Virus record (IMG/VR): IMGVR_UViG_3300025141_016046
Span: 1 to 64,000 of that record
Source: a virus
Length of the DNA: 64,000 bases
Strand: one strand, 5' to 3'
Part shown: positions 16,627 to 64,000 of the stretch, one piece after another
Numbering within the stretch: position 1 is the stretch's first letter
Layout of the letters: each line of letters starts with the position of its first letter
The notes under the pieces: model-generated
The model's input: only the letters and a program-made list of their open reading frames with translations
The model's database searches: none
What the model was told of the DNA's origin: nothing
Position numbers and translations under genes: made by a program

Positions 16627-17165
16627 ATAATTAATCCTGCTCTTGAAATCACGTATGCGTCTGCCATGTCATAGCTTATAGGATCTAAAACGCACTGATT
16701 TTTTCGAGGTCCGCTTTTTAAAATTTTTGTAGGCCATTTGAAGTCATCTAGCTCACCTGATGCCCATTCTATGATTTGATCTTTTGTAGGCTTTCCGCCG
16801 TCCTTTTTTCTTTTTATCTTTATTCCGAGAGCCTTTCTTGCCGTGTTTACGTTTATGAACATTGGAGAAAAGTAAAACTCTTCTTGTGCAAGGTAGCTAA
16901 CAATTCCATTAAATCTTGCAAGTGTTAAAAGTGTCTTTGCAGAAGAAAGGCCAGGCCTAAACGCCTGTAAATTTTCTTCAATACACACCTTTTCAATTCC
17001 ATATTCAATATTCAATCTGGATAATTCACGTCTAACTTTTTGAGCTTTCTTAAATATTGTCTTATCTTTTGATAGGACAACAGATCCCATGTCAATTAAA
17101 TTACCACTTGGCCCAATAATACACCAACCTGTGCAACTAGTAGATATATCAAGTCCTAAAATCAT
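16623..17165 (-). CDS. RuvC-like Holliday junction resolvase
   Basis: N-terminal ILGLDISTSCTG, CIEE, C-terminal DMADAYVI catalytic pattern. Confidence 0.85.
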   Translation of the reverse strand: MILGLDISTSCTGWCIIGPSGNLIDMGSVVLSKDKTIFKKAQKVRRELSRLNIEYGIEKVCIEENLQAFRPGLSSAKTLLTLARFNGIVSYLAQEEFYFSPMFINVNTARKALGIKIKRKKDGGKPTKDQIIEWASGELDDFKWPTKILKSGPRKNQCVLDPISYDMADAYVISRAGLII

Positions 17166-20077
17166 TAGAAGTCCATCTTAACTCTAAAGAGAAAGTCATC
17201 ATCATCTCTCTTAACTACAGGTTGTGCAAGATTTGCCTTCATAATTACATTCATATTATCATCATGAAAGTATATTCCAGTTATATAGACAAACTCTGAA
17301 TTAACATCATTTGCATCAAGTGATGCAGAAAGAACCTTAAACCCGGGATTAGATGAGCTATTAATTAATCCAGGCTGACAGGGTACATTTACTGACATTA
17401 CATGGATGTTTTGCTCACCGCTAAAAGAAGCTTCAAATTGATTTTTTCCAAAAAGATTTAAGTGTGGAGATTTAATTAAGACTATTCCCTCGTCGTAGAA
17501 TATATTTCCTACGTTGTTGTATGTGGCCTGTTCTGTTAGGCAGTCCGCTCTATATAGAGATCCATGACCGTCATCTTTTAGAGTGATACTTACCTTTCCT
17601 CTTGATCCAGAAATATTTTTATCAGTCAGTGTAAATGTTCCAGGCTGAATTCTATTTCCATAAAATAGGTTTGGAATATTGAATATAACAATCTCATTGC
17701 TTGATGGGTCTCTTGTTGCTTGATAAACTAAAAAGTGATTGTCAGCAGTTCCTTCAAGAACCTTTCCATCAGGCCTGTCAGGAGACGCCAAGAATAAACC
17801 TCCATCAGAGCTAGTATAGTAAGCTAAAGCATGCGAAATTCTGAAAGGGTCGTGAACATCAGTAAGGGGTATGTTAGCGGGTCTAGCTGTAAACATATCG
17901 CTTAGATTTATTAGACTGGGATCAAAGTTACCATAGTCATCTCTATACAGATATCCTTCAGATGATGATGTTATTAGGTCTGAGGTGTCTGATCCTGTAT
18001 ATAGCAGTCCATAGCTTGGCTGAAACTTTCCATTATCGTTTGGAAGAACTGATAGCGATCTCTTTCTTAGTGAAGCTGTTTGAAATAGCCAGTCAGACAC
18101 CTTTCTTTCAGATGGTTCATCCCCATCATAATCTCCCTTGACATCAAATTGAGATGAAGCAGTAAGGAATAAAAGGCGAGGATAGACATCGTTGACAATA
18201 TCTTTTGTAAAATTCTCAAGATTGATCAGTGTAGCATCAACAGTCATTGAAAGACCAGCGTTGAACGGCATTGACATATACGGCTGTACAAACTTATCAG
18301 TAGGATAGCTAACACCGTCTAATGCGCCGCCAGTATCAACAAAATCTTGCCTGCGTGATGATGAAAGAGCATTTGATAAAAATCTTCTATCATGCTTCTC
18401 ATAAGTGAAGAATGGAGGAACATAGAAAAGAAGATCAGATAGATCATCTGGCCCTCTAATCGAGCTAGAGTATATCTGTGTATCTGTTCTATACGTTGAA
18501 AATATCTTAAGGTCGTGGACTTCTGCATTTAGTGGGTGGTTAAAGAAGAACCCCTTTGGATCTCCTAGCTCAATTGCTGGATCAGTACTGTTTCTGCCGT
18601 CCCAGGTTGACACCCTAGGTCTAAGTGTAAATCCTTCATTTTTTCTTGCTGTGAGATTAAAGAATCTCTCTATTGTTGTTGCATTAGATCCTGTGGAGTT
18701 TGAACCCTCATAGAAGTTACCAATAAATAATGCATTTGGATCTGCTCTTCCTGCTGGAAATCTATCCCCTATTGCACGCCCAGTGCCGTCTTCTGCTTTA
18801 GTGTTTTGATTAACAATTGGCCTGATGCTTGAAGAAGAGTCAATTGTAAATTCTGATACTGGATCTCCGTCTATGACAAAGCTACCTGTTCCACTATTGA
18901 CCTTCGGGCTCCACCGAATTGCAACATGGTGCCAGTGATCCTTCTTGAGTGAGTTATCTGGTGAAACCCACGCGTACTTAAACGGTTCAGATTTATAATT
19001 TGCTGAATTGTTTAGATATATCGGTCTATCACTATCCTTGACAATCTTAAATCTTGAAGGAGGATATTCTGCACTTTGTGAGAGCTGAAGAAGAACCCTG
19101 TATCCGCTTGCAGATCCATCTGGTGCCTTTAGTGACCCTGTAACAAGACTGACAGCGTACGCGCCACTCATGTGATAGATTGTTCCAGCTTTAAACTCTC
19201 CCTTCTTAACACCTGACGATGTTTCATTTGTATATCTTGGATTAATATAAAAGTCAAACGTAAATGCAGTCTCAGGAGCATATCTTCCATCAAATCTTTT
19301 TCTTCTTACCAGCTCTTGGGCATCACCAGACCACACCTTATTTAGAGACCCAGTAGGACAAGGGTATATTAGGACTGAGCTTGATAGTGCATGGGTAGGA
19401 TAGAGATTTTGATCACCGTTTGAAGATGTAAAGAAGTTAAGAGTGTGGTAGTTTGTATATGCGTAGTTGGGATGGCTGATTTTTGCTCGATTTCCTTTCA
19501 GCAGTATATTTCTTATCTGGTTCTTAACAATTCTCCTATTTGCAGCAAAGCTTCCTGATATGCGATTCCTATCCATGGGTTTAGTATTAAATTGCTCGTC
19601 GTCCTGAAACAGGAACGGCGGCCTAAATCTCTCAATATTAAATACTTTTGAATTTTTAGCCGATGGTGACATCGACCTTACTGCTTTCATGTATCCTATA
19701 TGATCAGGTGGATCTCCATGAGAATTTAAATTCTCAATTCCAGTGTGCGGCCAGTCTGTCGCATACCCTAGGTAGCTCTGAATATCAGTAGTTGTTCCTG
19801 ATAGCTGCTGGGCTGAATAGAGGTTTATAAGTAGAGCAGACTTTTCTTCATCATACGCAACACTGGTAGGGTCAAGCTCTCTAACGCTCTTTGACACCCT
19901 ATTTGTCCTTGCAGACAGGCTAACCTGGCCCATAGTCCCAGTAGGGCTTGTAATTCCAGAGGCCATAACGGGCTCTTCGTTTACACTATCTACAGAGGAT
20001 GAGACAAACACCCTTTTTGGGTGAGTTGTCACAGTGACCTTTTCAATCAGGTCCCTTGTAATTTTGATAATTGCCAT
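17165..20077 (-). CDS. Large virion/baseplate protein with LamG-like domain
   Basis: FTFDFYINP, WHHVAIRW, FVIDG, LFIG, VHDLKIF LamG-type strands; C-terminus paralogous to the 20098-21390 protein. Confidence 0.7.
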   Translation of the reverse strand: MAIIKITRDLIEKVTVTTHPKRVFVSSSVDSVNEEPVMASGITSPTGTMGQVSLSARTNRVSKSVRELDPTSVAYDEEKSALLINLYSAQQLSGTTTDIQSYLGYATDWPHTGIENLNSHGDPPDHIGYMKAVRSMSPSAKNSKVFNIERFRPPFLFQDDEQFNTKPMDRNRISGSFAANRRIVKNQIRNILLKGNRAKISHPNYAYTNYHTLNFFTSSNGDQNLYPTHALSSSVLIYPCPTGSLNKVWSGDAQELVRRKRFDGRYAPETAFTFDFYINPRYTNETSSGVKKGEFKAGTIYHMSGAYAVSLVTGSLKAPDGSASGYRVLLQLSQSAEYPPSRFKIVKDSDRPIYLNNSANYKSEPFKYAWVSPDNSLKKDHWHHVAIRWSPKVNSGTGSFVIDGDPVSEFTIDSSSSIRPIVNQNTKAEDGTGRAIGDRFPAGRADPNALFIGNFYEGSNSTGSNATTIERFFNLTARKNEGFTLRPRVSTWDGRNSTDPAIELGDPKGFFFNHPLNAEVHDLKIFSTYRTDTQIYSSSIRGPDDLSDLLFYVPPFFTYEKHDRRFLSNALSSSRRQDFVDTGGALDGVSYPTDKFVQPYMSMPFNAGLSMTVDATLINLENFTKDIVNDVYPRLLFLTASSQFDVKGDYDGDEPSERKVSDWLFQTASLRKRSLSVLPNDNGKFQPSYGLLYTGSDTSDLITSSSEGYLYRDDYGNFDPSLINLSDMFTARPANIPLTDVHDPFRISHALAYYTSSDGGLFLASPDRPDGKVLEGTADNHFLVYQATRDPSSNEIVIFNIPNLFYGNRIQPGTFTLTDKNISGSRGKVSITLKDDGHGSLYRADCLTEQATYNNVGNIFYDEGIVLIKSPHLNLFGKNQFEASFSGEQNIHVMSVNVPCQPGLINSSSNPGFKVLSASLDANDVNSEFVYITGIYFHDDNMNVIMKANLAQPVVKRDDDDFLFRVKMDF

Positions 20078-20097: not shown

Positions 20098-21390
20098 CTA
20101 GAAGTCAAGCCTAATCCTGAAAGTCAGGTCCTTCTCGTCATTCTTCTCAACAGGTCTGCTTAGCTTGGCAACTGCAAGAAGATTATTTCTTCCGTCATAT
20201 AAGCCAATAGTGCTAACGAATGAGAATGTTCTCTGTGTAGTTTCCTCTCCTTCGTCAATCACGTTTATTCTTCCAGTGCTGTCAGTAAACGTTGGGTTAG
20301 AAGAGTAGTTAAACTCATCAGATCCAGCTCGGCAGAAGATCAATGTTGAATTAATATTTGTCACATTTTGAAATGTTATTGCAGTAAGTGATCCTGACTG
20401 GAATCTAACAGATGCAAAGTGATCTAGAATGTTATCCATTGAAGCTGATACGACAAAGTCTGGAATAAATTTGGCATTATTATTTCCGTACTCAGCGGCA
20501 TCTGCTGCACCTATTGGAGCTGCTGGTCCAAATCCAAGAATTGTCTGTCCTGAAGCTGCATCGTCAAAAGCTGCAGGAGACATGGCATCAATAACGCCAG
20601 AGGCAGCCTGAGAAGCTGATATTGCCTGTCCGAGATCTAGAAGACCTATTCCCATATCGTAGAATAGAAGGCCAACATTTCTATTTGTGTTAGATGAGTC
20701 AACTATGTTTCCAACCTCGCCGCCTACTGACGTCTCCTTGGCTGTGGCTGACCCGATATCAGTGTAGATGGCTGATCCTGACACAGTTGGAAGGTTAATG
20801 TTTGGACCCATGTTTCCTGACATCTGTGACTGTCCTGAAGCGCTTGGGTCTCCTGGTGCTCTAGATGCAGATTGATAAAACTTCATAGCGAAAGTTTCAC
20901 GCTTAATCCTGTCTCTAGAGAAAAGCCTCTTGAATGTAAAGAAGAGTGCGTGATCAATTCCGTTTGCAGTTGGAGGCTGGGTTGTATCAAAAGGAGTTGT
21001 GAATTGATACGATGCATCACCTAAAAGAAGCTGAGCAAACTGTCTATATACGTTTATCTTTTCTCTCATCATTAGAGAGTTAGAGGGAAATAGTAGCTTT
21101 CCTGCACTATCCTGTCCAGATGAGGCTGCAGCTACATCAGAACTTCCTGAGTATGCACCGTATGTAATATCAAATACTGGGTTTGCTGTCTGAAGTGTAT
21201 AGTCTTGATCGTACACAGTTTGAAAAAGAGATGATGTTACACCTGGACCGACACCTCCGGTAACGAAAACCTGATACTTCTTTCTAGTTGTTGATCCGGA
21301 GATATCCTCCTGAATAATGTCGACCAGCTGATTTAAAACAGACTTGCTAGTCTTAATATCAGCTGCGGAAATTTCTTTAAATGTAGCCAT
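20098..21390 (-). CDS. Virion/baseplate structural protein
   Basis: C-terminal EFNYSSNPTF...TIGLYDGRNNLLAVAKLSRPVEK...RLDF; multiple SGS/SAS motifs. Confidence 0.7.
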   Translation of the reverse strand: MATFKEISAADIKTSKSVLNQLVDIIQEDISGSTTRKKYQVFVTGGVGPGVTSSLFQTVYDQDYTLQTANPVFDITYGAYSGSSDVAAASSGQDSAGKLLFPSNSLMMREKINVYRQFAQLLLGDASYQFTTPFDTTQPPTANGIDHALFFTFKRLFSRDRIKRETFAMKFYQSASRAPGDPSASGQSQMSGNMGPNINLPTVSGSAIYTDIGSATAKETSVGGEVGNIVDSSNTNRNVGLLFYDMGIGLLDLGQAISASQAASGVIDAMSPAAFDDAASGQTILGFGPAAPIGAADAAEYGNNNAKFIPDFVVSASMDNILDHFASVRFQSGSLTAITFQNVTNINSTLIFCRAGSDEFNYSSNPTFTDSTGRINVIDEGEETTQRTFSFVSTIGLYDGRNNLLAVAKLSRPVEKNDEKDLTFRIRLDF

Positions 21391-22115: not shown

Positions 22116-22130
22116 TTTTTACCCCTGATT

Positions 22131-22173: not shown

Positions 22174-24204
22174 TCAGACATCTATTAGAGTTGCAACCTT
22201 TGTTGTGACAGAATAGTCTACTCCCTCGCCAACTTCAAACAAGTTATCCCTAGTGTCCTTAACATAAATATCAATTAGTTTTGATTTCTGGTTATCTAGA
22301 TTCATCATAGATAATTTATAGCTTGGATTATCATCGCTTGTTGCCATAATATTAAGATCATCTCCGTCTGAGTTTGTAACTGTTAAGTACTCTGGATCAA
22401 AGTAGATTGTTAATTGATTAAATCCAGATGTCTTTATTGTATCTTTGAACAGGTCATTTCTTAGATATAGATTTGGATATGGAATAGGTGCACCTGATTT
22501 TGACAAATATGAAACAATAAGCCTAGACTTAAATTTATCATATGATACACTAAACTGAGCAGAATAGTTTGAACAAAGACCCCTTGCGTCCACGCTAGCT
22601 ATCGAATAGATATATAAAGAATTGTGATTAAAATCCTTATCCCTATAGAGAAGTTGAGGCGAATCTGCAACCTGTATTAGAGCGCCGGATAATCTTGCTA
22701 TTGTGCTTTGAACAAGAGAGTCTGGATCTGGTATCTCTGTTGTCTTTGTAAGTGTAGTTGAGTCATTAAAGTAGTAATTTTTAATTAGCTGAAATGGAGA
22801 TGATGTATCAAGCCTTCTAAATACTCTAAACTCTTTTACATCTCTTTGTCTATTTACTGGCATTGACCACGCTATGTCTAGTGATTCTGACTTTCCATCC
22901 CAGACGAATTCAATATCTGTAGGTGGGGGTGGTGGAATTCTTTCTATGCATATAGATGTTGCAGTCTTACTAGGCCTGGATGCTATTAGAACACCAACTA
23001 CGACAGATTGATTTCTTGATTCATTTCCGGGATATACATTAATTGCACTAAATTCAAGATAAGCAATTGTTCTAACTCTATATCTGTACCCCCTTCCATA
23101 CATAATGTTTGGATCAATTGCGTCACCAGATAGGGGATTTTCAATTATAATTGGATCTAGTGTGAGTACATTTCCAGATTCATCAACCTCGTCCTTTTCA
23201 ATAAGGTATCCGACGACCCTTGCTGAATACTGGCTACCATCTGTCTGGTCAGCCATGTTTTGAGAAATTTTATATGTGACGGGCTCTGCACTGATATCAT
23301 AGTCATCATCACTTAGTGACCCAGCAGTGTTTGCTGTAACTGCTGCAGTTGATATTGAAGAAAGTATACTCTTTACTGTATTGAACTCTTCAAAGTATGA
23401 ACTTCCCCCATCCTTAGACCATGCATTTCCGCATCTTCCTGCGAGAACGTTACTTACAGAAATCCCTAGGTCAAAAACTGTCGAAGTATTAGAGAAGCTA
23501 TCGTTAATAAGAGCTGTCCTATCTTCAGACTGATTAAAAAAGCTTAGGTCACCCACAGACTGATAGCTTGCAAGAGCTGTCCTTAAAGTCTCTTTTGCAT
23601 TTGAATCCAGCCCAGTAGAAGATCCAACAGCTTCAAGATATGAATTAACAACATCGAGATTTGAATCAGATGACTCATTAGATGTTGTAGATGATGCAAA
23701 TTCAAATTCAATCTCTGATGAGTTTATTGCTATCTTTGCAACATCTGTCAGCTTTGTCAATCCTTCTGCATCCTGCAATCCAATTCCGCTATACTGATTA
23801 CTGGTCATAATATCCTCAAAGAGAATATTTTCAACATTGTCTGCTATACTAACTGTAAAGTCTACAACTTCTAGCCTGTCCTCATCTGAATCTATTACAG
23901 ATCTAAGCTCTTTTGGAGACCATGAAATTTTATTAAATCTAGGAAGCCCAACTTCAACAAGCTGTGCCCTTCTTTCAGACTCAGATGCATCATCGCTTAA
24001 AGTTGTAAATGATGTCCGAGACTCACCATCAACAACGACATCTCTAGAAGTAGTCTCATCTGCAACAAAGTAATTGTATTGAAACTCACTAGATACATTG
24101 TCTGGGATTGGTATGTCAGACTGATTGACTCCCTTGCTTGGCATAGATGAATAAGCTGATTCGTCTATCAGGTCATCATATATTGAAAATGATGATATTG
24201 TCAT
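22174..24204 (-). CDS. Acidic structural protein with fibronectin-III-like C-terminal domains
   Basis: YRYRVRTIA, PPPPPTDIEFVWD...IAWS...FRVFR...YIYSIASVDARG...SNYS Fn3-like pattern; AGGAG RBS. Confidence 0.6.
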   Translation of the reverse strand: MTISSFSIYDDLIDESAYSSMPSKGVNQSDIPIPDNVSSEFQYNYFVADETTSRDVVVDGESRTSFTTLSDDASESERRAQLVEVGLPRFNKISWSPKELRSVIDSDEDRLEVVDFTVSIADNVENILFEDIMTSNQYSGIGLQDAEGLTKLTDVAKIAINSSEIEFEFASSTTSNESSDSNLDVVNSYLEAVGSSTGLDSNAKETLRTALASYQSVGDLSFFNQSEDRTALINDSFSNTSTVFDLGISVSNVLAGRCGNAWSKDGGSSYFEEFNTVKSILSSISTAAVTANTAGSLSDDDYDISAEPVTYKISQNMADQTDGSQYSARVVGYLIEKDEVDESGNVLTLDPIIIENPLSGDAIDPNIMYGRGYRYRVRTIAYLEFSAINVYPGNESRNQSVVVGVLIASRPSKTATSICIERIPPPPPTDIEFVWDGKSESLDIAWSMPVNRQRDVKEFRVFRRLDTSSPFQLIKNYYFNDSTTLTKTTEIPDPDSLVQSTIARLSGALIQVADSPQLLYRDKDFNHNSLYIYSIASVDARGLCSNYSAQFSVSYDKFKSRLIVSYLSKSGAPIPYPNLYLRNDLFKDTIKTSGFNQLTIYFDPEYLTVTNSDGDDLNIMATSDDNPSYKLSMMNLDNQKSKLIDIYVKDTRDNLFEVGEGVDYSVTTKVATLIDV

Positions 24205-24244
24205 ATCTTTTCTCCTTGATCCATTGTTACTACCGCTGTGTTTC

Positions 24245-28780: not shown

Positions 28781-28781
28781 G

Positions 28782-32709: not shown

Positions 32710-32728
32710 AGCTGCACCTCTTCACTAA

Positions 32729-45520: not shown

Positions 45521-45524
45521 TTCA

Positions 45525-51314: not shown

Positions 51315-51324
51315 TCAAAAATTC

Positions 51325-56009: not shown

Positions 56010-56010
56010 C

Positions 56011-56340
56011 CTATCCTTTGTATGCCCTTATAGCACATATCTTGCCATCGCTATTAAACTCAATGACGTCAACAACCCGCAATGCATCATCATTATTAAT
56101 GTAGATCTCTATCTCAGATACAGTTAAATTTCCAGTTTCTGCAATATTGATTGGAACAATATTGATAGTGTCAAACATCTTAAACATTTTTTTATTTTCG
56201 TGAAGAACGTACGCAACGGGTCCAACATTAAGATCCCAATCTCTAAGCGTGATATCTTTAGAAAATAACTCCTTTAAACCGTCTGCATCCTTATTTGAAA
56301 AAGTATCAAAATACTTTAGTGTTAGCTCTTTTAAGTTCAT
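56011..56340 (-). CDS. SnoaL-like / NTF2-fold protein
   Basis: YFDTFSNKDADGLKELFSKDITLRDW...VVDVIEFNSDGKICAIRAYKG. Confidence 0.8.
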   Translation of the reverse strand: MNLKELTLKYFDTFSNKDADGLKELFSKDITLRDWDLNVGPVAYVLHENKKMFKMFDTINIVPINIAETGNLTVSEIEIYINNDDALRVVDVIEFNSDGKICAIRAYKG

Positions 56341-57389
56341 TTTATATCCTCCATTGTTAAAATTTGATCGTCAGAAATATCCTTAGACGCGAACCTTCCT
56401 AAGATCTTGTGAAGCATAGTTGGAGAAAGTCCAGTGCCTGGTCGCTTGCATGATAGATTTTTATCAGTAAGCATTTCCCCTTTTTTAATTTTAGAAGTGG
56501 ATACTATACTTCTTCTAGCATAAAGCCTTGCTCTCTCTTCGCTCTCTGTGCACTTCTTTTCTCTTGAGCCCAAGAGTGAAACTGCTAGGTTTATATTTTC
56601 AATAATCTTAGTAACTTCAGGTGGGTCAACTGATAGCCAGTGATCAGCACTTTTGTCAAGTGTCTTGTCTACTGTGTAGTGCTTTTCAAATATAGTTGCT
56701 CCAAGAGCATAGGCAAAAGCAGGGGTCCAAAGATTCATTGTGTGGTCAGATAGACCCATAATACAATCTGGAAACTCTTCTCTAAGGTGCTCTATCATTC
56801 GCAAGTTAATCTCATGATCTTCTGTTGGATACTTGAGATTACAGTGCATAACAACAATTTTATCTGTACCGCATTTTAGTACATTGACTGCAGCTCTTAT
56901 CTCATCTATTGTTCCAGCACCTGTAGAAAGCATAACTATCTTCCCCTTAGATGCTACATTTTCTAGAAGCGGATGATTTGTCAGGTCACATGATGCAATC
57001 TTATAAGCATTGATTCCAACTCTATCGAGGTAGTCTGTTGCTTCATCGTCAAATGGGGTTGACATAAACTCTATATCGTGATAGTCACATATTCGCTTAA
57101 GTTCTGCATGATCTGCCTCACCAAAAGAATCTAAATGAGAATAGGAGTCAAATTGAGATCCTTCACTTTCTATCTCACCTTCCCAATCCCAAAATCTAGG
57201 AGCATCTCTAGTACACAGATTTTTAGCTTTATATGATTGAAATTTAATTGCATGAGCACCTGCTTCAGCAGCTTCTCTAATTAATCTTTCACCGAGATCT
57301 AAAGATCCTAGATGATTTACACCTGCTTCAGCAATAAAAAATGGACTTCCTGATAAAAGACGGTTCCATAGTTTATCAACTGGTGACAT
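56337..57389 (-). CDS. neuB: Nonulosonic acid (N-acetylneuraminate-family) synthase with C-terminal SAF/AFP-like domain
   Basis: IAEAGVNHLG, AIKFQ, STPFD, KIASCD, LSTG, MHC..KYP, GLSDHT, EKHYT, DH; ARRSIV...KRPGTGLSP. Confidence 0.95.
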   Translation of the reverse strand: MSPVDKLWNRLLSGSPFFIAEAGVNHLGSLDLGERLIREAAEAGAHAIKFQSYKAKNLCTRDAPRFWDWEGEIESEGSQFDSYSHLDSFGEADHAELKRICDYHDIEFMSTPFDDEATDYLDRVGINAYKIASCDLTNHPLLENVASKGKIVMLSTGAGTIDEIRAAVNVLKCGTDKIVVMHCNLKYPTEDHEINLRMIEHLREEFPDCIMGLSDHTMNLWTPAFAYALGATIFEKHYTVDKTLDKSADHWLSVDPPEVTKIIENINLAVSLLGSREKKCTESEERARLYARRSIVSTSKIKKGEMLTDKNLSCKRPGTGLSPTMLHKILGRFASKDISDDQILTMEDIK

Positions 57390-58062
57390 TTTGATCCTCG
57401 TCTATTTTCTTTTTAAGAGACTGCCTTTCTTTGGTTTTTGAAGAAAGACTTCCAGACCTTTTAAAGTATCTGTAGTATGGTAACCTTAAATGGTACCCAT
57501 TAAAGTTCTTAATGTATCTTAAAATAAGATCATAGTCCTCTCTATTTCTTAGAGATTCATCGTATAGCCCTATTGACTCCAGATATCTCTTTCTAAACAT
57601 AATTCCTGCACCATGGTCAAGTAGCACATCTAGAGTGTTTAGTGACTGCTTTCTCTCAAATTTTTCATTTACAACTATGTGATCACAGTAAACAAACCCT
57701 ATATCATCATTCCACTCTAAAATCTCAGATAGTGTGAAGAGAAAGTTTTTATTAATAAAGTCGTCACCATCAACTCTCACTATGTACTTTCCTGATGATA
57801 GCGTGATTCCCTTGTTGGAGGCTGCCGACACTCCGCTATTCTTTTCTAGTCTGGCAGAATTTACTAGTCCAGAAAATTGAGAAATAACTTCCCAGGATCC
57901 ATCGATCGAACAATCATCTACGACAATTATCTCATATCTATCATCCGATAGTGTTTGATTAATGCAGCTATTAATTGCTCTCCCGATATGTTTTTCAAGA
58001 TTAAAGCAAGTTATAATGACGCTTATTAGTATATTGCTATCCTGCGTAGATTTTAATTCCAT
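57376..58062 (-). CDS. Glycosyltransferase family 2
   Basis: ISVIITCFN, EIIVVDDCSIDGS, NSGVSAASNKG, VDGDD, IGLYDESL...EDYDL. Confidence 0.92.
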   Translation of the reverse strand: MELKSTQDSNILISVIITCFNLEKHIGRAINSCINQTLSDDRYEIIVVDDCSIDGSWEVISQFSGLVNSARLEKNSGVSAASNKGITLSSGKYIVRVDGDDFINKNFLFTLSEILEWNDDIGFVYCDHIVVNEKFERKQSLNTLDVLLDHGAGIMFRKRYLESIGLYDESLRNREDYDLILRYIKNFNGYHLRLPYYRYFKRSGSLSSKTKERQSLKKKIDEDQNVTS

Positions 58063-58603
58063 CAGACTTTAACCATCTATCACAAATATTTTCAAAAACT
58101 TCTGGCGGTATGCCTGTTGATCCTAGCTTAGTATAGTTTGTGTTCTTAGTAAAGATAATATCAAACTTCTCTTCTATTTCAACTTCATACATTGAAAAAA
58201 GCTCATCTATATCTCTAACATCCCCTTCAAGTATGTAGTATATAGATTGACTACAGAATTTATCTGCAACCTCGCCTGCAGTTTTTTGATAAGCTTGATC
58301 TCCCTGACCCCTTAGCCTAAAGAGATCAATTCCTATAAACTTATTACAACCCCTCTCCTGAAAAAATGGCCACATTGTGCAAAATCCACATCCTAGATCT
58401 AGTACAGATATTGTATCTTCAGAATTCTTAGATTTTAAAAATGTGCTTAAGTCTCCTGATTTTTCAAATAATTCATTTAGCCTTCTCTCATGTGGAACAA
58501 TCAGCGCCCAGTTCCATAGGCTACCTCTTCCATGTTTATTGGATCTTTCAAGGAGAAAGCTTTCAATCTCCTGTATTAGATTTTCATCCTTGCTAGTTAT
58601 CAT
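58037..58603 (-). CDS. Class I SAM-dependent methyltransferase
   Basis: VLDLGCG motif I, IGIDL, EGDV, FDIIF, LKSDG. Confidence 0.85.
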   Translation of the reverse strand: MITSKDENLIQEIESFLLERSNKHGRGSLWNWALIVPHERRLNELFEKSGDLSTFLKSKNSEDTISVLDLGCGFCTMWPFFQERGCNKFIGIDLFRLRGQGDQAYQKTAGEVADKFCSQSIYYILEGDVRDIDELFSMYEVEIEEKFDIIFTKNTNYTKLGSTGIPPEVFENICDRWLKSDGIKIYAG

Positions 58604-59171
58604 TTTTATTTTCCATCTTTCTTGCTATTTTATCAATATCATCTTTTGTGTGAACGTCTATGTAGTTTGTACTTACAACTCCCTTATAAACACTTAAAGC
58701 CTTTTGATCAACACACCTGTCTAAAAGCACATGAATTGCTGAGTCTTCTATTCCATTTTGATCTACAGTAAATACTTCCCACAGATTATTTTGTATTAGC
58801 TTTTCAATACATTCATCTATCTTTATTGACTCTATTTGTGGTGAATTTGCTTGAATTCTAACCATCAGGTCAAAATAAACACCCGATTTATTTAGATGAT
58901 TTTTTGCATGTGAAAGAACATCCTGCGTCCAGACATTATCCCTTGAAAGGCTGCTAGGCCTATTAATAACGCTAATCCCTTGTGCTTCTACAATATTTTT
59001 TATTTCTTCATCTTCTGTACTGACAAATATATCTTTTTGATCAATATATTTGCTCTTCAGGCAAGCATCAATAGACCAGCAAACTAAAGGTTTGTTGAAG
59101 AGTAGATGGATATTTTTTCTAGGAAGTCTCTTGCTTCCACCTCTAGCAGGTATGACACAGACTATTTTCAA
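58593..59171 (-). CDS. neuA: Acylneuraminate cytidylyltransferase (CMP-nonulosonate synthetase)
   Basis: IPARGGSKRLPRKNI, KPL, VSTEDEEI, RP, QANSP, IDVHTKDD. Confidence 0.9.
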   Translation of the reverse strand: MKIVCVIPARGGSKRLPRKNIHLLFNKPLVCWSIDACLKSKYIDQKDIFVSTEDEEIKNIVEAQGISVINRPSSLSRDNVWTQDVLSHAKNHLNKSGVYFDLMVRIQANSPQIESIKIDECIEKLIQNNLWEVFTVDQNGIEDSAIHVLLDRCVDQKALSVYKGVVSTNYIDVHTKDDIDKIARKMENKNDN

Positions 59172-60346
59172 AGATCCTCCACAAGGATAGACTTATCTCC
59201 AGTCATTGAAGTGCATGCAATTCCAATCTTAACATCATCATCATCTGGCTTAAGGAAGCACCTCAAAAGATAGTAAGGACAAGCTGGGCAAACTTCTAAG
59301 TCTAGCTTATGATAGACTATTTCACCTGATTTTTTCTTGGTAAAGACAAATGGATTTTTCTGAAATATTTGATCTCTAAAGGTTATCATTAGACGATTAT
59401 TAGACCACCTCTCCAGCCCTATTTTTATCTCTATCGGCTTCATATTTTCACATATTTGAATTGCCTTTTTTGCATCAGACCATCTAAAGGGTATGTTAAA
59501 TTTTTTAGATGCATTTCTCAATAGGTCTATAGCATAGTACGTCTCATCTCTCATATCTCTATGATCATGACTAAAGTATGAAAGAATTACAGGGCAATTA
59601 TTCTGCCTGGCATACCCAAATGCTTCATCTACTTCCCACTGCTGTAACTCATGAAGCCTTGATTTAAGATCAACAGATCTAGCAACATATCTACGCATTC
59701 TTCCCGGAGAAAACAAGTCTCTTTTGCTTGGGTGATAATATCCCCAATGTCTTGGTGCATGAAACCAGTTAAAGTCAAAAATGTCATCTGTTTTGACTGA
59801 TGTGTACGAAGCCCTATTGGAATAGTCAATCATTAGATTTTCTTCTAGCCATTGAGAGCATTTATTATCCTCTATCGTACCTCCTGCTCTAAATGCTTCT
59901 GGAAAATCATATCTCTCAATAATTCTATGACCTAGTATTTGATAATGTACTTTGGAGCTATCCCAGTCACTAGACCATTGATCACCTATTCCGCTCTTAG
60001 GTGGTTGATGATAGTGCCAGTGAAAGCTGTCACAGTCTGTATTTAGAGACTTAATGTTGTCATATGTGTCATTATATTTTTCAATTCTATTTTTAGGATT
60101 TGTCCTAAACCCCATAAAGTCCATAATAAACCAGTTTAAAATAAAATAATTTTCGAAAGAATCCCGAGAGTCAAATCTAAACCTATCAGATGTTATATCT
60201 GACAGTGATCGCTTTATGTCGTCCCAGTTATCCATAAACTCTTTGGATCCGTCTGGTCTCCTTCTAACGTCGCCCCCAATCGGTCCTTCAGTATCCACAC
60301 AGTGAACAACTAGAACCTGAGCTTTATTTGTTGAGAAACCACCCAT
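59168..60346 (-). CDS. Polysaccharide deacetylase / carbohydrate-esterase-like metal hydrolase
   Basis: VHCVDTEG, HWHYH, FRAGG, YFSHD pattern resembling NodB-like barrels. Confidence 0.5.
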   Translation of the reverse strand: MGGFSTNKAQVLVVHCVDTEGPIGGDVRRRPDGSKEFMDNWDDIKRSLSDITSDRFRFDSRDSFENYFILNWFIMDFMGFRTNPKNRIEKYNDTYDNIKSLNTDCDSFHWHYHQPPKSGIGDQWSSDWDSSKVHYQILGHRIIERYDFPEAFRAGGTIEDNKCSQWLEENLMIDYSNRASYTSVKTDDIFDFNWFHAPRHWGYYHPSKRDLFSPGRMRRYVARSVDLKSRLHELQQWEVDEAFGYARQNNCPVILSYFSHDHRDMRDETYYAIDLLRNASKKFNIPFRWSDAKKAIQICENMKPIEIKIGLERWSNNRLMITFRDQIFQKNPFVFTKKKSGEIVYHKLDLEVCPACPYYLLRCFLKPDDDDVKIGIACTSMTGDKSILVEDL

Positions 60347-61184
60347 ATTTTACCATTCCTGAGTCTATGTTATTCTCTTTAAACCAGCAAAAAGTATCAT
60401 TTAAAATACTCCATCGCTTAGTCGCAAAGTCCTTAAAACTATCATCAATTTGATAGTCGCTATCTTTAACTTCAATACAGCCGCTTAGAGATTTTGAAAT
60501 ATCAAGATTAAATCTTGACAACATGTCAAAGTAAATTACTAGCTTGTGAAATCTATTTTTAAATTTATAGTGATTAGAAATGTTCACAATTCCTGCTGCT
60601 ACTCCAGATATTTCTCTTATACTTGCAGAAAAAGTATACCATGCGTTTTCAGCAGCACTATAATACTCATATACTGAATTTTTAAGATTTATATCTTTAT
60701 AGTTTTTTCTTATATTGTCAATTGAGGGCCTGGTAAAATGAGAAAGTGTCATTTTTTCAACCTTTCTTATGCTTCTATCAAGTGATTTTAGATATAGAAG
60801 GACCCTTCTATCACTTACATCCCAGCTCTTTAAGATAGACTCAATTAATAAAATTCTTTCCGGAAGCCACTCTAAAACTTCTATAATGTCAAAATAGTTT
60901 GAATTTACTTTTTCTACAGGTATTTCAACACCCTGAACAAGATTTAATTTAAATCTTTCAATATAGTTTATTTTAGAAAAAATATCTGAAGGCATTATGA
61001 TAACATTTCCGCCTTGCAAGAAATTACTAACATTATCGCTAATTGAAGGCTTTGAATCAAGTACAAGAAAATCTAGATCTGATATTCCAGGATGTGATAT
61101 TTCTCCAACTTGATATATTTGAAGAGATGGGTTATCCTTGCAGAACTCTAATATAGCACGGTCATAATCTTCTTTTGTTTGCAA
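60324..61184 (-). CDS. Nucleotidyltransferase-like protein (Pol-beta fold)
   Basis: IYQVGEISHPGISDLDFLV (G-x...DxD motif); helical C-terminus. Confidence 0.6.
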   Translation of the reverse strand: MQTKEDYDRAILEFCKDNPSLQIYQVGEISHPGISDLDFLVLDSKPSISDNVSNFLQGGNVIIMPSDIFSKINYIERFKLNLVQGVEIPVEKVNSNYFDIIEVLEWLPERILLIESILKSWDVSDRRVLLYLKSLDRSIRKVEKMTLSHFTRPSIDNIRKNYKDINLKNSVYEYYSAAENAWYTFSASIREISGVAAGIVNISNHYKFKNRFHKLVIYFDMLSRFNLDISKSLSGCIEVKDSDYQIDDSFKDFATKRWSILNDTFCWFKENNIDSGMVKYGWFLNK

Positions 61185-61185
61185 T

Positions 61186-62199
61186 TTAGATACCCAGTAT
61201 TGACTTCATTTCTTTAATAAGATTATACCCTCTAAGAAAATAATTTTCACCAATAATTTTCATTGCACTATCAGGAATCTCATTTGAAAGAGAGAGATTT
61301 GCTTTCCAGCCTGCTCTTAGCATAGAAGAGACATCAACTATCTCAAAATTTTCTTTACTAATGACTTTCCTACATGCCTCTATTGATTCTGGCTTTGTTA
61401 GATATTCACCCCTAATATTCATAAAATAAGAAGGAAGGAGACAGATAACAGACATAAAGTATTTCATCTGATACATGGAATTTTTATAATTTCTAAAATT
61501 ATCCATCATATAGACACCCTCATAGGCATGATGTTGAAGTGTTCCGCTCCCAAATGCACGCTCTAGGGTCTTGTAAATTGAATTAAATCTATCTATTTGC
61601 TCTTGACTTGAATCTCTCTTGTGTCCAAATAGATCGAACTCTCCAAGAAGCGATACGCTTTGCTCAAAAAGGCTTGTTGGAAGATAGAGGTCGGGATACA
61701 TTAAAAGATCTTTTTCAGCTATAAAGTGAATTCCGTGATGTTGATGATTATCAAGATTCTTAATCATGTTCTCGATTGCCTGACAGATAGACCTAAGCCT
61801 TATCATCTCAGAAGCATCATCTAGCGTCCCATCTCTTATGATTGCAATACTATCAAAGTCACTCCATCCTGGAACATAGTCCAATGTTGCAAGACTTCCA
61901 TGAAGGATAAAACCCTTAAGATAATAATGAGCATTTTGTCTAATAAAGTCAGATATCTCTAAAACAGGCTTAAGAAATGGATCTTTATATTTTTCATAGT
62001 CTATTTTGTCAATGGATGATCTAAAACTATGTGTAGAAAAATCGCTAGGATTTAGACATTTATATGATGATGATACTGACCTTGCTATCATCTCTTTGAC
62101 AAAAAATGGCTCACTATCAATACATCCAGACTTTGTGTGAAGAAACCAGTTTAAAAGACTATTTGAACTCTTTTGAAGATTTATTTGATTTCTGGACAT
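61186..62199 (-). CDS. Nucleotidyltransferase (Pol-beta fold)
   Basis: FILHGSLATLDYVPGWSDFDSIAII (GS...DxD); DNHQHHG. Confidence 0.7.
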   Translation of the reverse strand: MSRNQINLQKSSNSLLNWFLHTKSGCIDSEPFFVKEMIARSVSSSYKCLNPSDFSTHSFRSSIDKIDYEKYKDPFLKPVLEISDFIRQNAHYYLKGFILHGSLATLDYVPGWSDFDSIAIIRDGTLDDASEMIRLRSICQAIENMIKNLDNHQHHGIHFIAEKDLLMYPDLYLPTSLFEQSVSLLGEFDLFGHKRDSSQEQIDRFNSIYKTLERAFGSGTLQHHAYEGVYMMDNFRNYKNSMYQMKYFMSVICLLPSYFMNIRGEYLTKPESIEACRKVISKENFEIVDVSSMLRAGWKANLSLSNEIPDSAMKIIGENYFLRGYNLIKEMKSILGI

Positions 62200-63302
62200 T
62201 CTTTTTCTATAAAGTCAACAATTCTAGAAGATGCTCCTTCGTAATTTTTAGAAAAGTATTTCTCCTGAAATGATTGCCAGTCTCTATCATCTCTATTGAT
62301 AAGGCCTAGTACGCGATTTAACTCAGACTGCATTCTTAGTCTAAATTCAGATTCGTCATCAGTACTCTTCTTAAGAATTGTATCACAGTGAACTCCATCA
62401 AATATAGGTCCAGAGTAATATTGCTTATTGATTGGATCCATTGCCCTGAAGAGCTGCTCTCTATTTTTGTGAAGTGCTGCATGCATGTCAGAAAACAGAC
62501 AGACATACGGAACCTGAAGAAATGTTAGCTCATTAATTGCTGACGAGCAAAAGTTGAATACACACTTTGACGATGTATAGAGTCTTAAGTGAGAAACAAT
62601 ATTATCATCATAAACATATCCATCAAAATTTGTGAACTTGTGGTATGGATAGGAATATTTCTGTCTTGATTTTAGTATTAATGCATACTTGTTTCTATCG
62701 CAAAAACTTCTTAGTTCAGCTAGAAATATCTTTACATAATCCAAAAATCCACTATAGTTTGACACAAAGCTGTTGTGAGGTGCCATAAATGTTACAATAT
62801 CGAGGTCTTCTTTTATGTTTAGACTCTTAAAGTCATTTATAATTTCAAACCACGGGCTTCCAAGTGACTGAATTTTTGTATGACCTGTGAGCGTCTGAAC
62901 AGTATTTTTAGACCACTCGCTATTTGCAAATAGTGTTGAAGATCCTGAATAGTCATTTCTACTGTTGTATATCTCATTCCAGCAATATTCAACTGCATAC
63001 ACATTAGACTGTCCAGATATTTCGTATATCTCACTCCATATTTTATTGAATAGGTTAATACCTATCAGAAATCTATAGTCATTGTGATTGTTAATTACTG
63101 CCTTTCTTACTTCCTCTCTGTTCCTAAATGTCATCCAGTTTATGTCATCTAGTCTTAATCCAATCTTTGGAATATTGGACAAAGACTCTCTCTTGCATGT
63201 TGAAAAAACATCACACTGATACCCTCTAGATCTGCACTCTCTAATTAGCCCAAGAACAGACTGAACAGTTTGAGACTTATCAATAAAGAATGCAACCTTC
63301 AT
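62181..63302 (-). CDS. Putative GT-B transferase (sialyl/glycerophosphate transferase-like)
   Basis: Two-domain alpha/beta layout; LGSPWFE; LILKSR; FCSSAINELTFLQVPYV; C-terminal GASSRIVDFI. Confidence 0.5.
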   Translation of the reverse strand: MKVAFFIDKSQTVQSVLGLIRECRSRGYQCDVFSTCKRESLSNIPKIGLRLDDINWMTFRNREEVRKAVINNHNDYRFLIGINLFNKIWSEIYEISGQSNVYAVEYCWNEIYNSRNDYSGSSTLFANSEWSKNTVQTLTGHTKIQSLGSPWFEIINDFKSLNIKEDLDIVTFMAPHNSFVSNYSGFLDYVKIFLAELRSFCDRNKYALILKSRQKYSYPYHKFTNFDGYVYDDNIVSHLRLYTSSKCVFNFCSSAINELTFLQVPYVCLFSDMHAALHKNREQLFRAMDPINKQYYSGPIFDGVHCDTILKKSTDDESEFRLRMQSELNRVLGLINRDDRDWQSFQEKYFSKNYEGASSRIVDFIEKECPEIK

Positions 63303-64000
63303 TAGCTATTTAACCACTCGTCAATGTGTGCTTCATCCTTTGCTTCTGGGCTTGAAAAATCCTTTGAAAGCAATACCTGTCCATAGTCAATCTCATTATC
63401 TGGAATTCTTCTATCATCAAAAAATATCCTTCTATCCATTATAATAAGCTCTTTTGATTCATCATTAATTTCATCTATTAGCTTTGCACACTGAATTCCT
63501 GGCTCGCTATTCTTTGTTGGAAGATGATAGTCGTCAAACAAGAGAAATGCATTGTATTTATCCTTACATAGATCCCAATCGCGCTTAACACCGTTGTATG
63601 TGTGATCTCCATCAATATAAATCATATCAAAATTTCCCTCAACACTTGGCAATACACTACTAGAAGCCCCTGATCTAAACTCAATCATTGAAAACCACTG
63701 GCTTGGAAATATTGACTTTAATCTTGTTATTAATGCTTGATCAAAGTTTGGATCAACTGTTACGATTCGCCCTCGGACTCCTGAGTCACTAAATGCCTTT
63801 GCTGCACAAAATGTAGAATAGCCTCTGCCAAATCCTATCTCAAGAAATGATGTTAGCTTAAACTTTCTTATTAGTGTGTATATTAAAAGACCTCTTTCGT
63901 AGTTTGGCCTGAAGAAGCACCCGACAGACCTGTAGAGATCACTATTTTGACCTCTTGTCTTTTTTGCGGTATATTCTCCAATTGCATCAAAATCACCCAG
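63302..64000 (-). CDS. Class I SAM methyltransferase (Methyltransf_24-like), 5'-truncated by the window edge
   Basis: Frame is open from 64000 (LGDFDAIGEY...FLEIGFGRGYST...IVTVDP...) and continues into FDMIYIDGDHTY...FDDY; the ORF-track start at 63688 is internal. Confidence 0.88.
   Translation of the reverse strand: MGDFDAIGEYTAKKTRGQNSDLYRSVGCFFRPNYERGLLIYTLIRKFKLTSFLEIGFGRGYSTFCAAKAFSDSGVRGRIVTVDPNFDQALITRLKSIFPSQWFSMIEFRSGASSSVLPSVEGNFDMIYIDGDHTYNGVKRDWDLCKDKYNAFLLFDDYHLPTKNSEPGIQCAKLIDEINDESKELIIMDRRIFFDDRRIPDNEIDYGQVLLSKDFSSPEAKDEAHIDEWLNS

Follow-up and report, generated by a model that had tools for sequence, protein, structure and literature searches.

Tail genes, GT4 pair, and glycan cluster

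The window analyzed here is a 64,000-nucleotide stretch of DNA from an uncultured, aquatic, T4-like phage (positions 1 to 64,000 of IMG/VR record IMGVR_UViG_3300025141_016046) within a 75.8-kb contig that also encodes T4-like MCP, protease, portal, and TerL proteins. It carries a block of tail and baseplate genes, a gp55-like late sigma-factor gene, a core pair of genes for soluble GT4 glycosyltransferases, and a glycan cluster that extends past the end of the window (Table 1).

Table 1. Features of the window, with [ST]GS sites or profile matches
Feature	Coordinates	Strand	[ST]GS sites or profile match
970-aa tail protein	17165..20077	-	7 [ST]GS; 23 [ST][GAS]S sites
430-aa tail protein	20098..21390	-	4 sites
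676-, 1511-, and 990-aa Ser-rich proteins, without motif enrichment	22174..31754	-	1 versus about 6 expected
325-aa and 203-aa proteins	31732..33340	-	3 and 2 sites
1369-aa LamG-domain protein	33350..37459	-	8 sites; PF13385 43.4 bits (cut-off 27.6)
317-aa protein, gp8-position	37456..38409	-	2 sites
1242-aa peripheral baseplate protein, two LamG-like jelly rolls	38413..42141	-	14 [ST]GS
513-aa all-beta protein, CBM-like jelly roll and Ig/FN3-like domains	42141..43682	-	4 sites
gp6-like wedge (610 aa) and gp25-like (157 aa) core baseplate proteins	43688..45998	-	0 sites
gp55-like late sigma factor, between GT4 pair and baseplate genes	49096..49836	-	profile match
GT4 glycosyltransferase pair (388 and 415 aa)	50148..52572	-	PF00534
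PD-(D/E)XK nuclease travelling with GT4 pair	52623..53456	-	PF12705, E 1e-19
Two Sulfotransfer_2 genes, opposite strand	53501..55152	+	PF03567
Accessory nonulosonate cassette	55149..64000, onward to about 75680 of contig	-	profile matches

Among the tail proteins, the 1242-aa product had been taken in the initial annotation for the baseplate wedge; the gp6-like wedge is instead the 610-aa ORF at 43688-45520 (phrog_6, E 4.5e-18), and the 157-aa protein matches phrog_43. The 1242-aa protein scores 38.4 bits against PF13385 (Laminin_G_3), above the Pfam gathering score of 27.6, and Foldseek matched its AF2 model (pLDDT 80.5) to LamG/pentraxin folds. The 513-aa protein, whose gene lies directly downstream of the gp6-like gene, was modeled with a pTM of 0.80 and matched 8wab, a CBM. 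For the 970-aa protein, the LamG_3 match (23.5 bits) falls under the cut-off of 27.6; a C-terminal segment of 90 aa in this protein has a paralogue in the 430-aa product. The Ser-rich 990-, 1511-, and 676-aa products are likely distal-fiber proteins.

Both GT4 enzymes possess an invariant EX7E motif (residues 286 to 294 of the 415-aa and 271 to 279 of the 388-aa protein). Their genes lie upstream of the sigma-factor gene and outside the baseplate operon. The family profile of the sigma factor matches T4 gp55 (7d7c_F) at E 0.008, and its L158 homologue gives a weak Sigma70_r2 match. The nuclease gene neighbors the GT4 pair in Flavobacterium phage immuto and Microcystis phage Mel-JY01 as well, and variable glycan cassettes flank the pair in all three phages.

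As the initial annotation had described, a large glycan cluster adjoins the tail genes. It spans 50148 to at least 75680 of the contig, with about 31 ORFs, and is wholly soluble: no TM-like segment was found in any of the 31 ORFs. The cluster thus lacks Wzx/Wzy as well as a priming transferase, which requires a cytoplasmic acceptor. The part of the cassette within the window encodes a short UDP-sugar dehydrogenase, a SnoaL-like protein, a NeuB-type synthase (PF03102, E 4e-73), a GT2, a methyltransferase-like protein, a CMP-sugar synthetase (PF02348, E 1.8e-27), another methyltransferase, and four unassigned ORFs; ORF 62181-63302 gives a weak sialyltransferase-like lead. Synthase and synthetase are both intact. 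The NCBIfam scores of the synthase stay under the equivalog cut-off for NeuB and under that for PseI, so it is assigned to the nonulosonate synthases in general. A search of the 75.8-kb contig, which covers about 25% of the genome, gave no match to Maf/MptE-like transferases (PF01973) at E<=1; the rest of the genome may encode one. The Sulfotransfer_2 pair is an insertion relative to the closest long relative (L005), where no such genes separate the UDP-sugar dehydrogenase gene from that of the nuclease.

Enrichment and placement of [ST]GS

The tripeptide [ST]GS exceeds compositional expectation four- to sevenfold in eight baseplate and fiber proteins. Recounting reproduced exactly the per-protein numbers of the initial annotation, and its view that composition alone is insufficient withstood comparison with composition-preserving shuffles. 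Observed versus expected counts were 14 versus 2.05 in the 1242-aa protein (P 4e-8), 8 versus 2.5 (1369 aa), 7 versus 1.2 (970 aa), 4 versus 0.74 (430 aa), and 4 versus 0.64 (513 aa); for [ST][GAS]S in the 970-aa protein, they were 23 versus 4.2. The single site in the pooled Ser-rich proteins lies in the 1511-aa product, with none in the 990-aa product. SbcC has one site, terminase and portal have none, and the capsid protein is not enriched (1 versus 1.0 expected). When all 8000 tripeptides were ranked in the tail block, SGS came first (27 versus 10.3) and TGS second (19 versus 6.5). Both also lie above first-order Markov expectation (26 versus 13 and 18 versus 9, respectively), and SGT and TGT show no such excess. 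The 46 motif sites are encoded by 31 different 9-mers with varied codons; thus, the signal is at the protein level. Of the variants noted alongside [ST]GS in the initial annotation, [ST]AS too is enriched in the motif families (observed/expected ratio [O/E], 2.5 to 4.7) and [ST]SS weakly so (1.5 to 1.7). [DN]GS is under-represented (O/E, 0.5 to 0.7), and position 1 is nearly always S or T at conserved sites.

The excess spans at least eight protein families, almost without sequence paralogy, and the folds that bear it differ (LamG jelly rolls, CBM and Ig-like domains, sheath outer domains, and spike repeats). Family O/E is about 5.8 for the 1242-aa protein (120 homologues, across which at least nine sites are kept), 5.7 to 6.3 for the 513-aa protein (5.7 in 112 representatives), 5.8 for the 325-aa protein (22 homologues), 4.0 for the 1369-aa protein (7 of 8 sites retained at 47 to 54% identity), and 3.4 for the 317-aa protein. 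In the 990-aa family, no [ST]GS was found versus 9.2 expected, and the gp6-like and gp25-like core baseplate proteins are poor in the motif (11 versus 45 expected in 83 homologues). Eight sheath paralogues of the window's lineage contain 37 sites versus 9.9 expected, 36 of them outside the T4 gp18-aligned core. The motif-bearing subset consists of peripheral baseplate proteins, fibers or spikes, and outer tail-sheath domains, all facing outward on the virion; the initial annotation had described it as a subset of structural proteins.

Most occurrences fall in fixed alignment columns (1071/1361 and 378/498). Sporadic sites occur at 0.4 to 0.6 times expectation, like control tripeptides, and therefore give no sign of selection for site density. 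At seven sites, the G and the first S are at least 90% conserved with few S-to-T swaps, and position 3 varies (S, T, or A). Motif sites mark the boundaries of beta strands, and positions -4, -1, and +1 are hydrophobic; in the AF2 model of the 1242-aa protein, the sites are strand ends, strand starts, or tight hairpins, in agreement with the turns anticipated in the initial annotation. Four sites of this protein occupy canonical, conserved glycine turns of the Laminin_G_3/pentraxin fold; one of them, site 317, corresponds to F-S-G in human PTX3. The flanking Ser/Thr residues are nevertheless clade specific, and the motif is found outside LamG domains as well as in proteins that have none. Members of the 513-aa family that are poor in the motif show unrelated residues at the hot columns; therefore, the fold does not require the motif. 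As read from sequence, [ST]GS with hydrophobic flanks may be a conserved surface tag on the outer virion domains of a very large aquatic clade.

Co-occurrence across relatives

Motif excess and GT4 homologues are shared by three cultured phages, immuto, Mel-JY01, and Rhodothermus phage RM378. When tripeptides were ranked over each genome, SGS/TGS stood at 2/5 in the contig studied here, 1/3 in immuto, 4/23 in Mel-JY01, and 11/14 in RM378; the capsid proteins of the cultured relatives have one [ST]GS each. HTVC008M shows a weaker excess of SGS alone (rank 11), and no homologue of the 415-aa GT4 was found in it. Excess is absent from Syn9 (ranks 1069/2165), from T4 structural proteins (2 [ST]GS versus 8.8 expected), and from an outgroup record, G036 (11 versus 10.1), which has no GT4 pair in its 42 kb. 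One tagged protein alone forms more than 2000 clusters at 50% identity. The clade may correspond to aquatic "Far-T4"-like phages, a placement drawn from the T4-like genes and from the GT4 homologue and motif shared with RM378 (Far-T4 phages, Roux et al. 2015, PMC4360716; "moraphages," PMC12619734).

Of 34 related records, 31 carry the GT4 pair and the remaining three end short. The pair is present in every informative relative, usually 5 to 8 kb upstream of the baseplate genes; in one lineage (L134), it has been relocated, not lost, and we found no lineage truly without the pair by loss. These are the only transferases that track the motif. NeuB, in contrast, occurs in 10 of the 34 records and is absent from the three largest (66 to 81% complete). 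Motif O/E is 5.3 with NeuB, 5.8 without it, and 7.2 in four big NeuB-negative genomes. Relatives lacking NeuB are equally enriched, an outcome that the initial annotation had itself named as refuting; the link of the motif to the NeuB/NeuA cluster that it inferred is not supported. The nonulosonate cassette is accessory in this clade: its content differs among the closest relatives, and the kinase-like and sulfotransferase genes are confined to it.

Readings of the motif and known systems

The statistics, conservation, position, and distribution of the motif and its co-occurrence with the GT4 pair are established from sequence; that any sugar is attached is an inference. In the reading that we tentatively favor, at somewhat under an even chance, [ST]GS would tag virion proteins for O-glycosylation initiated by the GT4 enzymes, and the 25-kb cluster would be an exchangeable extension module. 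The first Ser/Thr of the motif would be the acceptor, modified in the host cytoplasm. The two conserved GT4 enzymes would start the glycan on folded beta-sandwich domains, and lineage-specific cassettes beside them would extend and decorate it, in this phage through roughly 25 kb of genes for nonulosonates and for sulfo-, methyl-, and phospho-sugars. With the cassette as an extension, NeuB-type genes would be an optional outer layer and not motif defining. Recurrence in at least eight families and different folds, confinement to outer parts, clade specificity, and the universal GT4 pair together suggest such a tag, as do the EX7E motif kept by both enzymes, the membrane-free cluster, the variable cassettes flanking the pair, and the preference for S/T over D/N at position 1. 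Against it, shared ancestry confounds the association with the GT4 enzymes: the same cultured phages have the gp6-like protein in common as well. The likely distal-fiber proteins also lack enrichment, and HTVC008M retains its SGS excess without a homologue of the 415-aa enzyme. Moreover, the predicted GT4s are no less similar to enzymes of the family that act on small molecules, such as BshA/MshA, than to any others, and their genes sit upstream of the sigma-factor gene, outside the baseplate operon.

The excess in fixed columns, at strand boundaries, and on LamG/pentraxin glycine positions also counts against an acceptor tag and is consistent with a purely structural motif, which we consider nearly as likely. 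Phi-[ST]-G-[STA]-Phi would then form a tight turn, a beta-bulge, or a strand cap (an ST-turn containing glycine) in the beta-sandwich domains that the clade's outer virion proteins consist of, passed on at constant places and left unmodified. Background levels of sporadic sites, near-invariance of G and first S, hydrophobic flanks, drift of the third position, the PTX3 counterpart, and strand-boundary or hairpin sites in two confident AF2 models all favor a turn. However, comparable beta-rich tail proteins of T4, Syn9, and G036 lack the motif, as do other beta-rich, Ser-rich proteins of the same phage. A turn also accounts poorly for recurrence across different folds without detectable paralogy, for the unrelated residues in motif-poor 513-aa members, and for the disfavoring of D/N, the usual turn-formers, at position 1. 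The same distribution (outer proteins only, clade-specific, several folds) would suit a tag whose reader is not a glycosyltransferase but, for example, a different modifying enzyme or an assembly chaperone, or a surface that the outer virion proteins share for contacts or ligand binding, and what ties the GT4 pair to the tagged proteins is co-occurrence. We judge this reading unlikely, as no universal candidate reader besides the GT4 pair was found beside the motif genes, and the kinase-like and sulfotransferase genes are accessory. More improbable still is the literal earlier proposal that the NeuB/NeuA cluster and its transferases define a system placing a nonulosonate-containing glycan on [ST][GAS]S. 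The intact synthase and synthetase, the soluble, adjacent cluster, and the weak sialyltransferase-like ORF speak for it. The 24 of 34 relatives without NeuB, including the three most complete, the lack of a Maf-type transferase in 75.8 kb, and the differing cassettes speak against it. As a determinant of the motif, this cluster is largely refuted by the equal enrichment without NeuB; it survives only as an optional glycan extension in this phage.

A broader form of the GT4-initiated reading, possible though doubtful, is that sequon-directed O-glycosylation of folded virion domains would be a core trait of this clade, which ranks among the most abundant of aquatic phages: the GT4s would start a glycan on Phi-[ST]-G-S-Phi turns of the outer tail proteins, and exchangeable neighboring cassettes would confer a lineage "serotype," here a nonulosonate-containing glycan bearing sulfate and methyl groups. 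Should the tag mark sites of glycosylation, sugars on virions would be no mycobacteriophage curiosity but a core, sequence-readable trait of a huge uncultured aquatic clade, with a defined acceptor motif, an enzyme pair, and lineage-specific glycan cassettes. Such cassettes could affect host recognition, particle stability, and grazing or aggregation in water, and their role would explain the large membrane-free sugar gene clusters of these phages. If the motif is only structural, it is a sequence signature of the clade's outer virion domains and nothing more. Cultured immuto, Mel-JY01, and RM378 share the signature, which makes the question directly testable.

Several known systems resemble parts of this arrangement. 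The autotransporter heptosyltransferases Aah and TibC O-glycosylate many Ser residues of AIDA-I and TibA in the cytoplasm with ADP-heptose. There, as here, many Ser residues lie at turns between short beta strands of folded, repetitive, beta-rich surface proteins; those sites belong to the beta-helix repeats of one protein, whereas the phage sites occur in several unrelated virion proteins, and no Aah/TibC-family enzyme was identified in this phage. In flagellin O-glycosylation, Maf proteins add pseudaminic or legionaminic acid at sites without a strict sequon. The likeness lies in a NeuB-type synthase and CMP-sugar synthetase beside surface-structure genes and in Ser/Thr acceptors on exposed domains, but here PF01973 is lacking and the accessory nonulosonate genes do not covary with the motif. 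GtfA and GtfB, the latter non-catalytic, glycosylate long disordered repeats of serine-rich-repeat adhesins. Two adjacent GT-B/GT4-type proteins and S-x-S-like acceptors with small middle residues recall the phage pair, although both phage GT4s keep EX7E with no non-catalytic partner, the sites are in folded domains, and the Ser-richest proteins lack enrichment. Chloroviruses, which infect eukaryotes, N-glycosylate their capsid protein at atypical sites with virus-encoded cytoplasmic glycosyltransferases. In the phage studied here, soluble viral enzymes would likewise glycosylate virion proteins independently of the host's membrane machinery. The best PDB sequence match of the 415-aa GT4 is a putative chlorovirus glycosyltransferase, NY-2A B736L (3oy2; E 4e-7), a weak, generic GT4 similarity.

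Mycobacteriophages offer a further known system, in which glycosyltransferases encoded by the phage O-glycosylate its virion proteins (Freeman et al. 2023, as described in PMC12619734). There, the glycans sit on the C-termini of capsid and tail-tube subunits and were chemically shown. Phage-encoded soluble enzymes acting on the phage's own virion proteins in the cytoplasm are proposed here as well. Relative to that description, the candidate acceptor here is an internal tripeptide in folded outer domains of baseplate, fiber, and sheath proteins, with no enrichment in the capsid, and the putative enzymes, predicted from sequence, form a GT4 pair. Conservation of phage glycosyltransferases together with virion genes is found here too, in the GT4 pair.

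[ST]GS counts in the tail proteins

On recount, the numbers of Ser/Thr-Gly-Ser tripeptides ([ST]GS) given by eye in the initial annotation proved exact, and the excess survived the composition correction that it had proposed as a check. Relative to shuffles preserving each protein's own composition, five tail or baseplate proteins, named here by length, carry more sites than expected, the 1242-aa protein with P = 4e-8 (see the table of counts). A smaller excess is present in the 325-, 203-, and 317-aa proteins. Summed, the Ser-rich 990-, 1511-, and 676-aa proteins contain 1 site versus ~6 expected, and homologues of the 990-aa protein (n = 6) contain none versus 9.2 expected. Within the tail block, SGS and TGS rank first and second of 8000 tripeptides, and [ST]GS is about twice as frequent as predicted from SG and GS dipeptide counts. 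SGT and TGT show no excess over the dipeptide-count prediction in this block. Hydrophobic residues are enriched at positions -4, -1, and +1 of the sites (~0.55 versus 0.31 background).

Because shuffles, tripeptide ranks, and the dipeptide-based expectation were all exceeded, a composition artifact was rejected. A DNA-level motif was also rejected, as the 46 sites are encoded by 31 different codon triplets and the motif is retained at 44 to 50% protein identity. Simple paralogy of the tagged proteins does not account for the pattern (a single 90-aa match was found among them), nor does a generic property of T4-like baseplates, given the low count in T4 and an observed/expected ratio (O/E) of 1.16 in Syn9.

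Observed and expected [ST]GS counts, with ranks of SGS and TGS among 8000 tripeptides
Protein or genome	Observed	Expected	SGS/TGS rank
1242 aa	14	2.05	
1369 aa	8	2.5	
970 aa	7	1.2	
430 aa	4	0.74	
513 aa	4	0.64	
Own contig	59	26	2/5
Flavobacterium phage immuto	111	44	1/3
Microcystis phage Mel-JY01	145	55	4/23
Rhodothermus phage RM378	45	17.5	11/14
Syn9	57	49	1069/2165
HTVC008M	56	34	11/2573
T4, 23 structural proteins	2	8.8	
Outgroup G036	11	10.1	

Conserved columns and outer domains

Database relatives of the 1242-aa protein number at least 869, and the contigs that encode them reach 375 kb; no homologue was found in GenBank phages. The best 120 of these relatives (44 to 100% identity) contain 1361 sites versus 233 expected. 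A profile search with the 513-aa family retrieved 2045 representatives at 50% clustering, and O/E was 4.7 to 6.2 across the best 150 of them. In 80 related viral contigs, O/E was 5.8 for the 1242-aa family, 6.3 for the 513-aa family, 4.0 for the 1369-aa family, 3.4 for the 317-aa family, and 5.8 for the 325-aa family. The gp6-like family gave 0.24 in the same contigs; we do not claim real depletion, as the count (11 versus 45) is about what conserved nonmatching columns allow.

Most sites occupy fixed positions. Hot alignment columns account for 1071 of 1361 occurrences in the 1242-aa family and 378 of 498 in the 513-aa family. Among the 120 sequences of the former, T-SGS-[WF] is found at residue 731 in 97%, F-SG[ST]-L at residue 646 in 93%, and G-SG[ST] at residue 290 in 94%; the third motif position varies among S, T, and A in this family. 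Sporadic sites outside the hot columns occur at 0.4 to 0.6 of expectation, equal to control tripeptides, and thus there is no sign that new sites are gained above chance. Turnover that maintains site density, as for sequons under selection, was not seen. Motif-poor members of the 513-aa family have unrelated residues at the hot columns, so the motif can be lost without disrupting the fold. For a covariation test, viral contigs offered no useful relatives of two motif-poor members, P0263 and P0192.

In an AlphaFold2 model of residues 1 to 1200 of the 1242-aa protein (pLDDT 80.5, pTM 0.73), the 14 sites lie in tight hairpins or where strands begin or end, and Foldseek retrieved LamG, pentraxin, and neurexin-LNS folds. 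From the strand pattern and multi-LNS neurexin alignments, we read two jelly rolls (residues ~125 to 330 and ~730 to 935), within which nine of the 14 sites would fall. Four sites coincide with canonical LamG_3 glycine turns, and F-S-G of human PTX3 aligns opposite site 317 in a profile alignment. The modeled 513-aa protein is all-beta (pTM 0.80) and combines Ig/FN3-like domains with a CBM-like jelly roll; here, too, the sites are at strand boundaries.

The tail sheath offers a comparison with T4. The immuto sheath, gp041, contains 7 [ST]GS versus 1.3 expected, all within residues 62 to 275, outside the part aligned to the T4 gp18 core. Four large relatives of the window's lineage (G001, G003, G004, and G005; L220-L223) encode two tandem sheath paralogues of ~1000 to 1160 aa each, versus 659 aa for T4 gp18. 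Pooled, these paralogues contain 37 sites versus 9.9 expected, 36 of which lie outside the gp18-aligned core. The non-core domains of gp18 face outward in published structures. By their placement in these alignments, the sites thus appear to mark outer domains, even in a sheath family whose T4 member has none.

The GT4 pair and explanations of the motif

The initial annotation had read [ST]GS as a virion O-glycosylation sequon tied to a NeuB/NeuA nonulosonate cluster. The link to nonulosonates fails. Only 10 of 34 related records have NeuB, with the three largest (267, 320, and 241 kb; 66 to 81% complete) among those lacking it, and motif O/E in the 1242-aa family is 5.3 in NeuB-positive records versus 5.8 in NeuB-negative records and 7.2 in four large NeuB-negative genomes. 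The constant partner is the GT4 pair, glycosyltransferase genes encoding ~415 and ~390 aa, found in 31 of the 34 records; the contigs of the three exceptions end <8 kb upstream. Of 30 informative loci in another, more varied sample, 28 have the pair nearby. One exception is a distant outgroup; the other, the L134 lineage, was rejected as a case lacking the pair because it keeps the pair 30 kb away. The EX7E motif is invariant in both enzymes, whose other database matches are generic GT4.

Only a handful of GenBank phages carry a homologue of the 415-aa GT4: immuto, Mel-JY01, an uncultured 484-kb phage, RM378, and, weakly, S-CBS4. The gp6-like protein is also common to the first three. In immuto and Mel-JY01, the GT4 pair lies together with a PD-(D/E)XK nuclease and with additional, different sugar genes. 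The [ST]GS excess of the GT4-bearing phages is concentrated downstream of the wedge protein gene, in genes with tail fiber, tail spike, or hypothetical annotations. Two immuto genes annotated as tail spike gp101 and gp102 encode tandem [ST]GSF units (e.g., SGSF-SGSF-xGD), an arrangement of repeats that the window's own proteins do not show. Outgroup G036, with no GT4 pair within its 42 kb, encodes the sigma factor and a T4-like sheath, along with a weak homologue of the 513-aa family. Pelagiphage HTVC008M has no 415-aa GT4 homologue and shows an excess of SGS only; thus, some SGS enrichment can arise without the pair. Three giant HTVC008M proteins exceed [ST]GS expectation ~3-fold.

GT4-initiated O-glycosylation of the virion would explain the motif, a reading we adopt tentatively and at somewhat less than an even chance. 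A modification tag is favored because the motif spans several folds, is restricted to outer domains, is clade specific, and prefers S/T over D/N at position 1, and because it tracks a conserved, soluble GT4 pair, apparently active and flanked by variable sugar cassettes. A purely structural motif, nearly as likely, would fit the fixed columns without an excess of new sites, the strand-boundary sites with hydrophobic anchors, the overlap of some sites with canonical LamG turns, and the near-invariant Ser, rather than S/T exchange, at several sites. The motif is also missing from likely fiber proteins, and its co-occurrence with the GT4 pair is inseparable from shared ancestry. A tag of another kind strikes us as improbable, and one defined by nonulosonates, given the similar enrichment with and without NeuB, as very unlikely.

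If GT4-initiated glycosylation is correct, the acceptor logic would presumably be nearest to autotransporter heptosylation or the modification of folded EGF/TSR domains. Neither a sequon like [ST]GS nor glycoproteomic data on the cultured relatives turned up in our literature search. The nearest known case, mycobacteriophage virion glycosylation (cited in PMC12619734), differs in sites, target proteins, and enzymes. The clade carrying the motif probably corresponds to the "Far-T4" group (PMC4360716), with a possible overlap with the "moraphages"; four glycosyltransferase groups form part of the moraphage core genome (PMC12619734).

Gene content of the contig and its sugar-gene cluster

The window comprises the initial 64 kb of one viral contig of 75,845 bp (CheckV completeness, ~25%), from a divergent T4-like myovirus. 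Its T4-like head genes encode a gp23-like capsid protein, prohead protease, portal, and large terminase; other genes encode SbcC, a primase-like protein, and a RuvC-like resolvase. The gp23-like match of the capsid ORF is limited to residues ~372 to 631 and does not cover the N-terminal half. The family profile of the 246-aa ORF matches T4 gp55 (7d7c_F; E = 0.008), and Sigma70_r2 is weakly matched by a distant homologue; with Pfam and PHROGs alone, the ORF had no match. Five transmembrane-like hydrophobic stretches are present in the 427-aa ORF of the baseplate module. Its conservation is poor (blastp, 7 of ~85 loci), and its product may resemble a tape measure or be membrane active. For the moraphage lineage, PMC12619734 reports that a tape measure was not identified.

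Coordinates of features in the contig and in related records
Feature	Position	Strand	Remark
Capsid ORF	2-1948	-	648 aa, at contig edge
Tail and baseplate block	17165-48713		includes gp25-like and gp6-like wedge protein
990-, 1511-, and 676-aa proteins	22174-31754	-	Ser-rich
gp25-like and gp6-like wedge protein	43688-45998		
427-aa ORF	46039-47322	-	
gp55-like late sigma factor	49096-49836	-	246 aa, between GT4 pair and baseplate genes
Sugar-gene cluster	50148 to at least 75680		
GT4 pair	50148-52572	-	388 and 415 aa
PD-(D/E)XK nuclease	52623-53456	-	beside GT4 pair
Two Sulfotransfer_2 genes	53501-55152	+	tandem, opposite strand
UDP-sugar dehydrogenase	55149-56009	-	286 aa only
NeuB-type synthase	56337-57389	-	
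CMP-sugar synthetase	58593-59171	-	short, 192 aa
Third sulfotransferase	66394-67158		
PD-(D/E)XK nuclease, immuto (L159)	18804-19745		beside GT4 pair
PD-(D/E)XK nuclease, Mel-JY01 (L171)	932-1828		beside GT4 pair
immuto (L169) tail spike genes	19659-22820, 19010-19645		gp101, gp102
HTVC008M (L206-L213) giant proteins	37918-43923, 46673-49735, 51699-54905		

Besides the GT4 enzymes and the nuclease, the cluster encodes three sulfotransferases, a short UDP-sugar dehydrogenase, a NeuB-type synthase, two GT2 enzymes, a CMP-sugar synthetase, several methyltransferases, a mannose-6-P isomerase cupin, kinase-like proteins, nucleotidyltransferases, and a HAD phosphatase. All 31 ORFs of the cluster are free of transmembrane-like segments. 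The NeuB-type synthase scores under the NCBIfam equivalog cutoffs (NeuB, 325 versus 400; PseI, 259 versus 340). Neither precursor enzymes of the NeuC, PseB/C, or LegB/C type nor a Maf-type transferase was seen in the 75,845-bp contig (~25% of the genome). The dehydrogenase ORF covers N-terminal-domain profile positions 70 to 177 and the central domain. The Rossmann-fold start is missing from this ORF, as is the C-terminal domain; it may be truncated or have a wrongly called start. The two Sulfotransfer_2 genes look like an insertion, judging from gene order; the closest long relative, L005, has the order NeuB, dehydrogenase, nuclease, GT4, GT4, without the two plus-strand genes. The PD-(D/E)XK nuclease adjoins the GT4 pair in this phage, immuto, and Mel-JY01, and the association is conserved.
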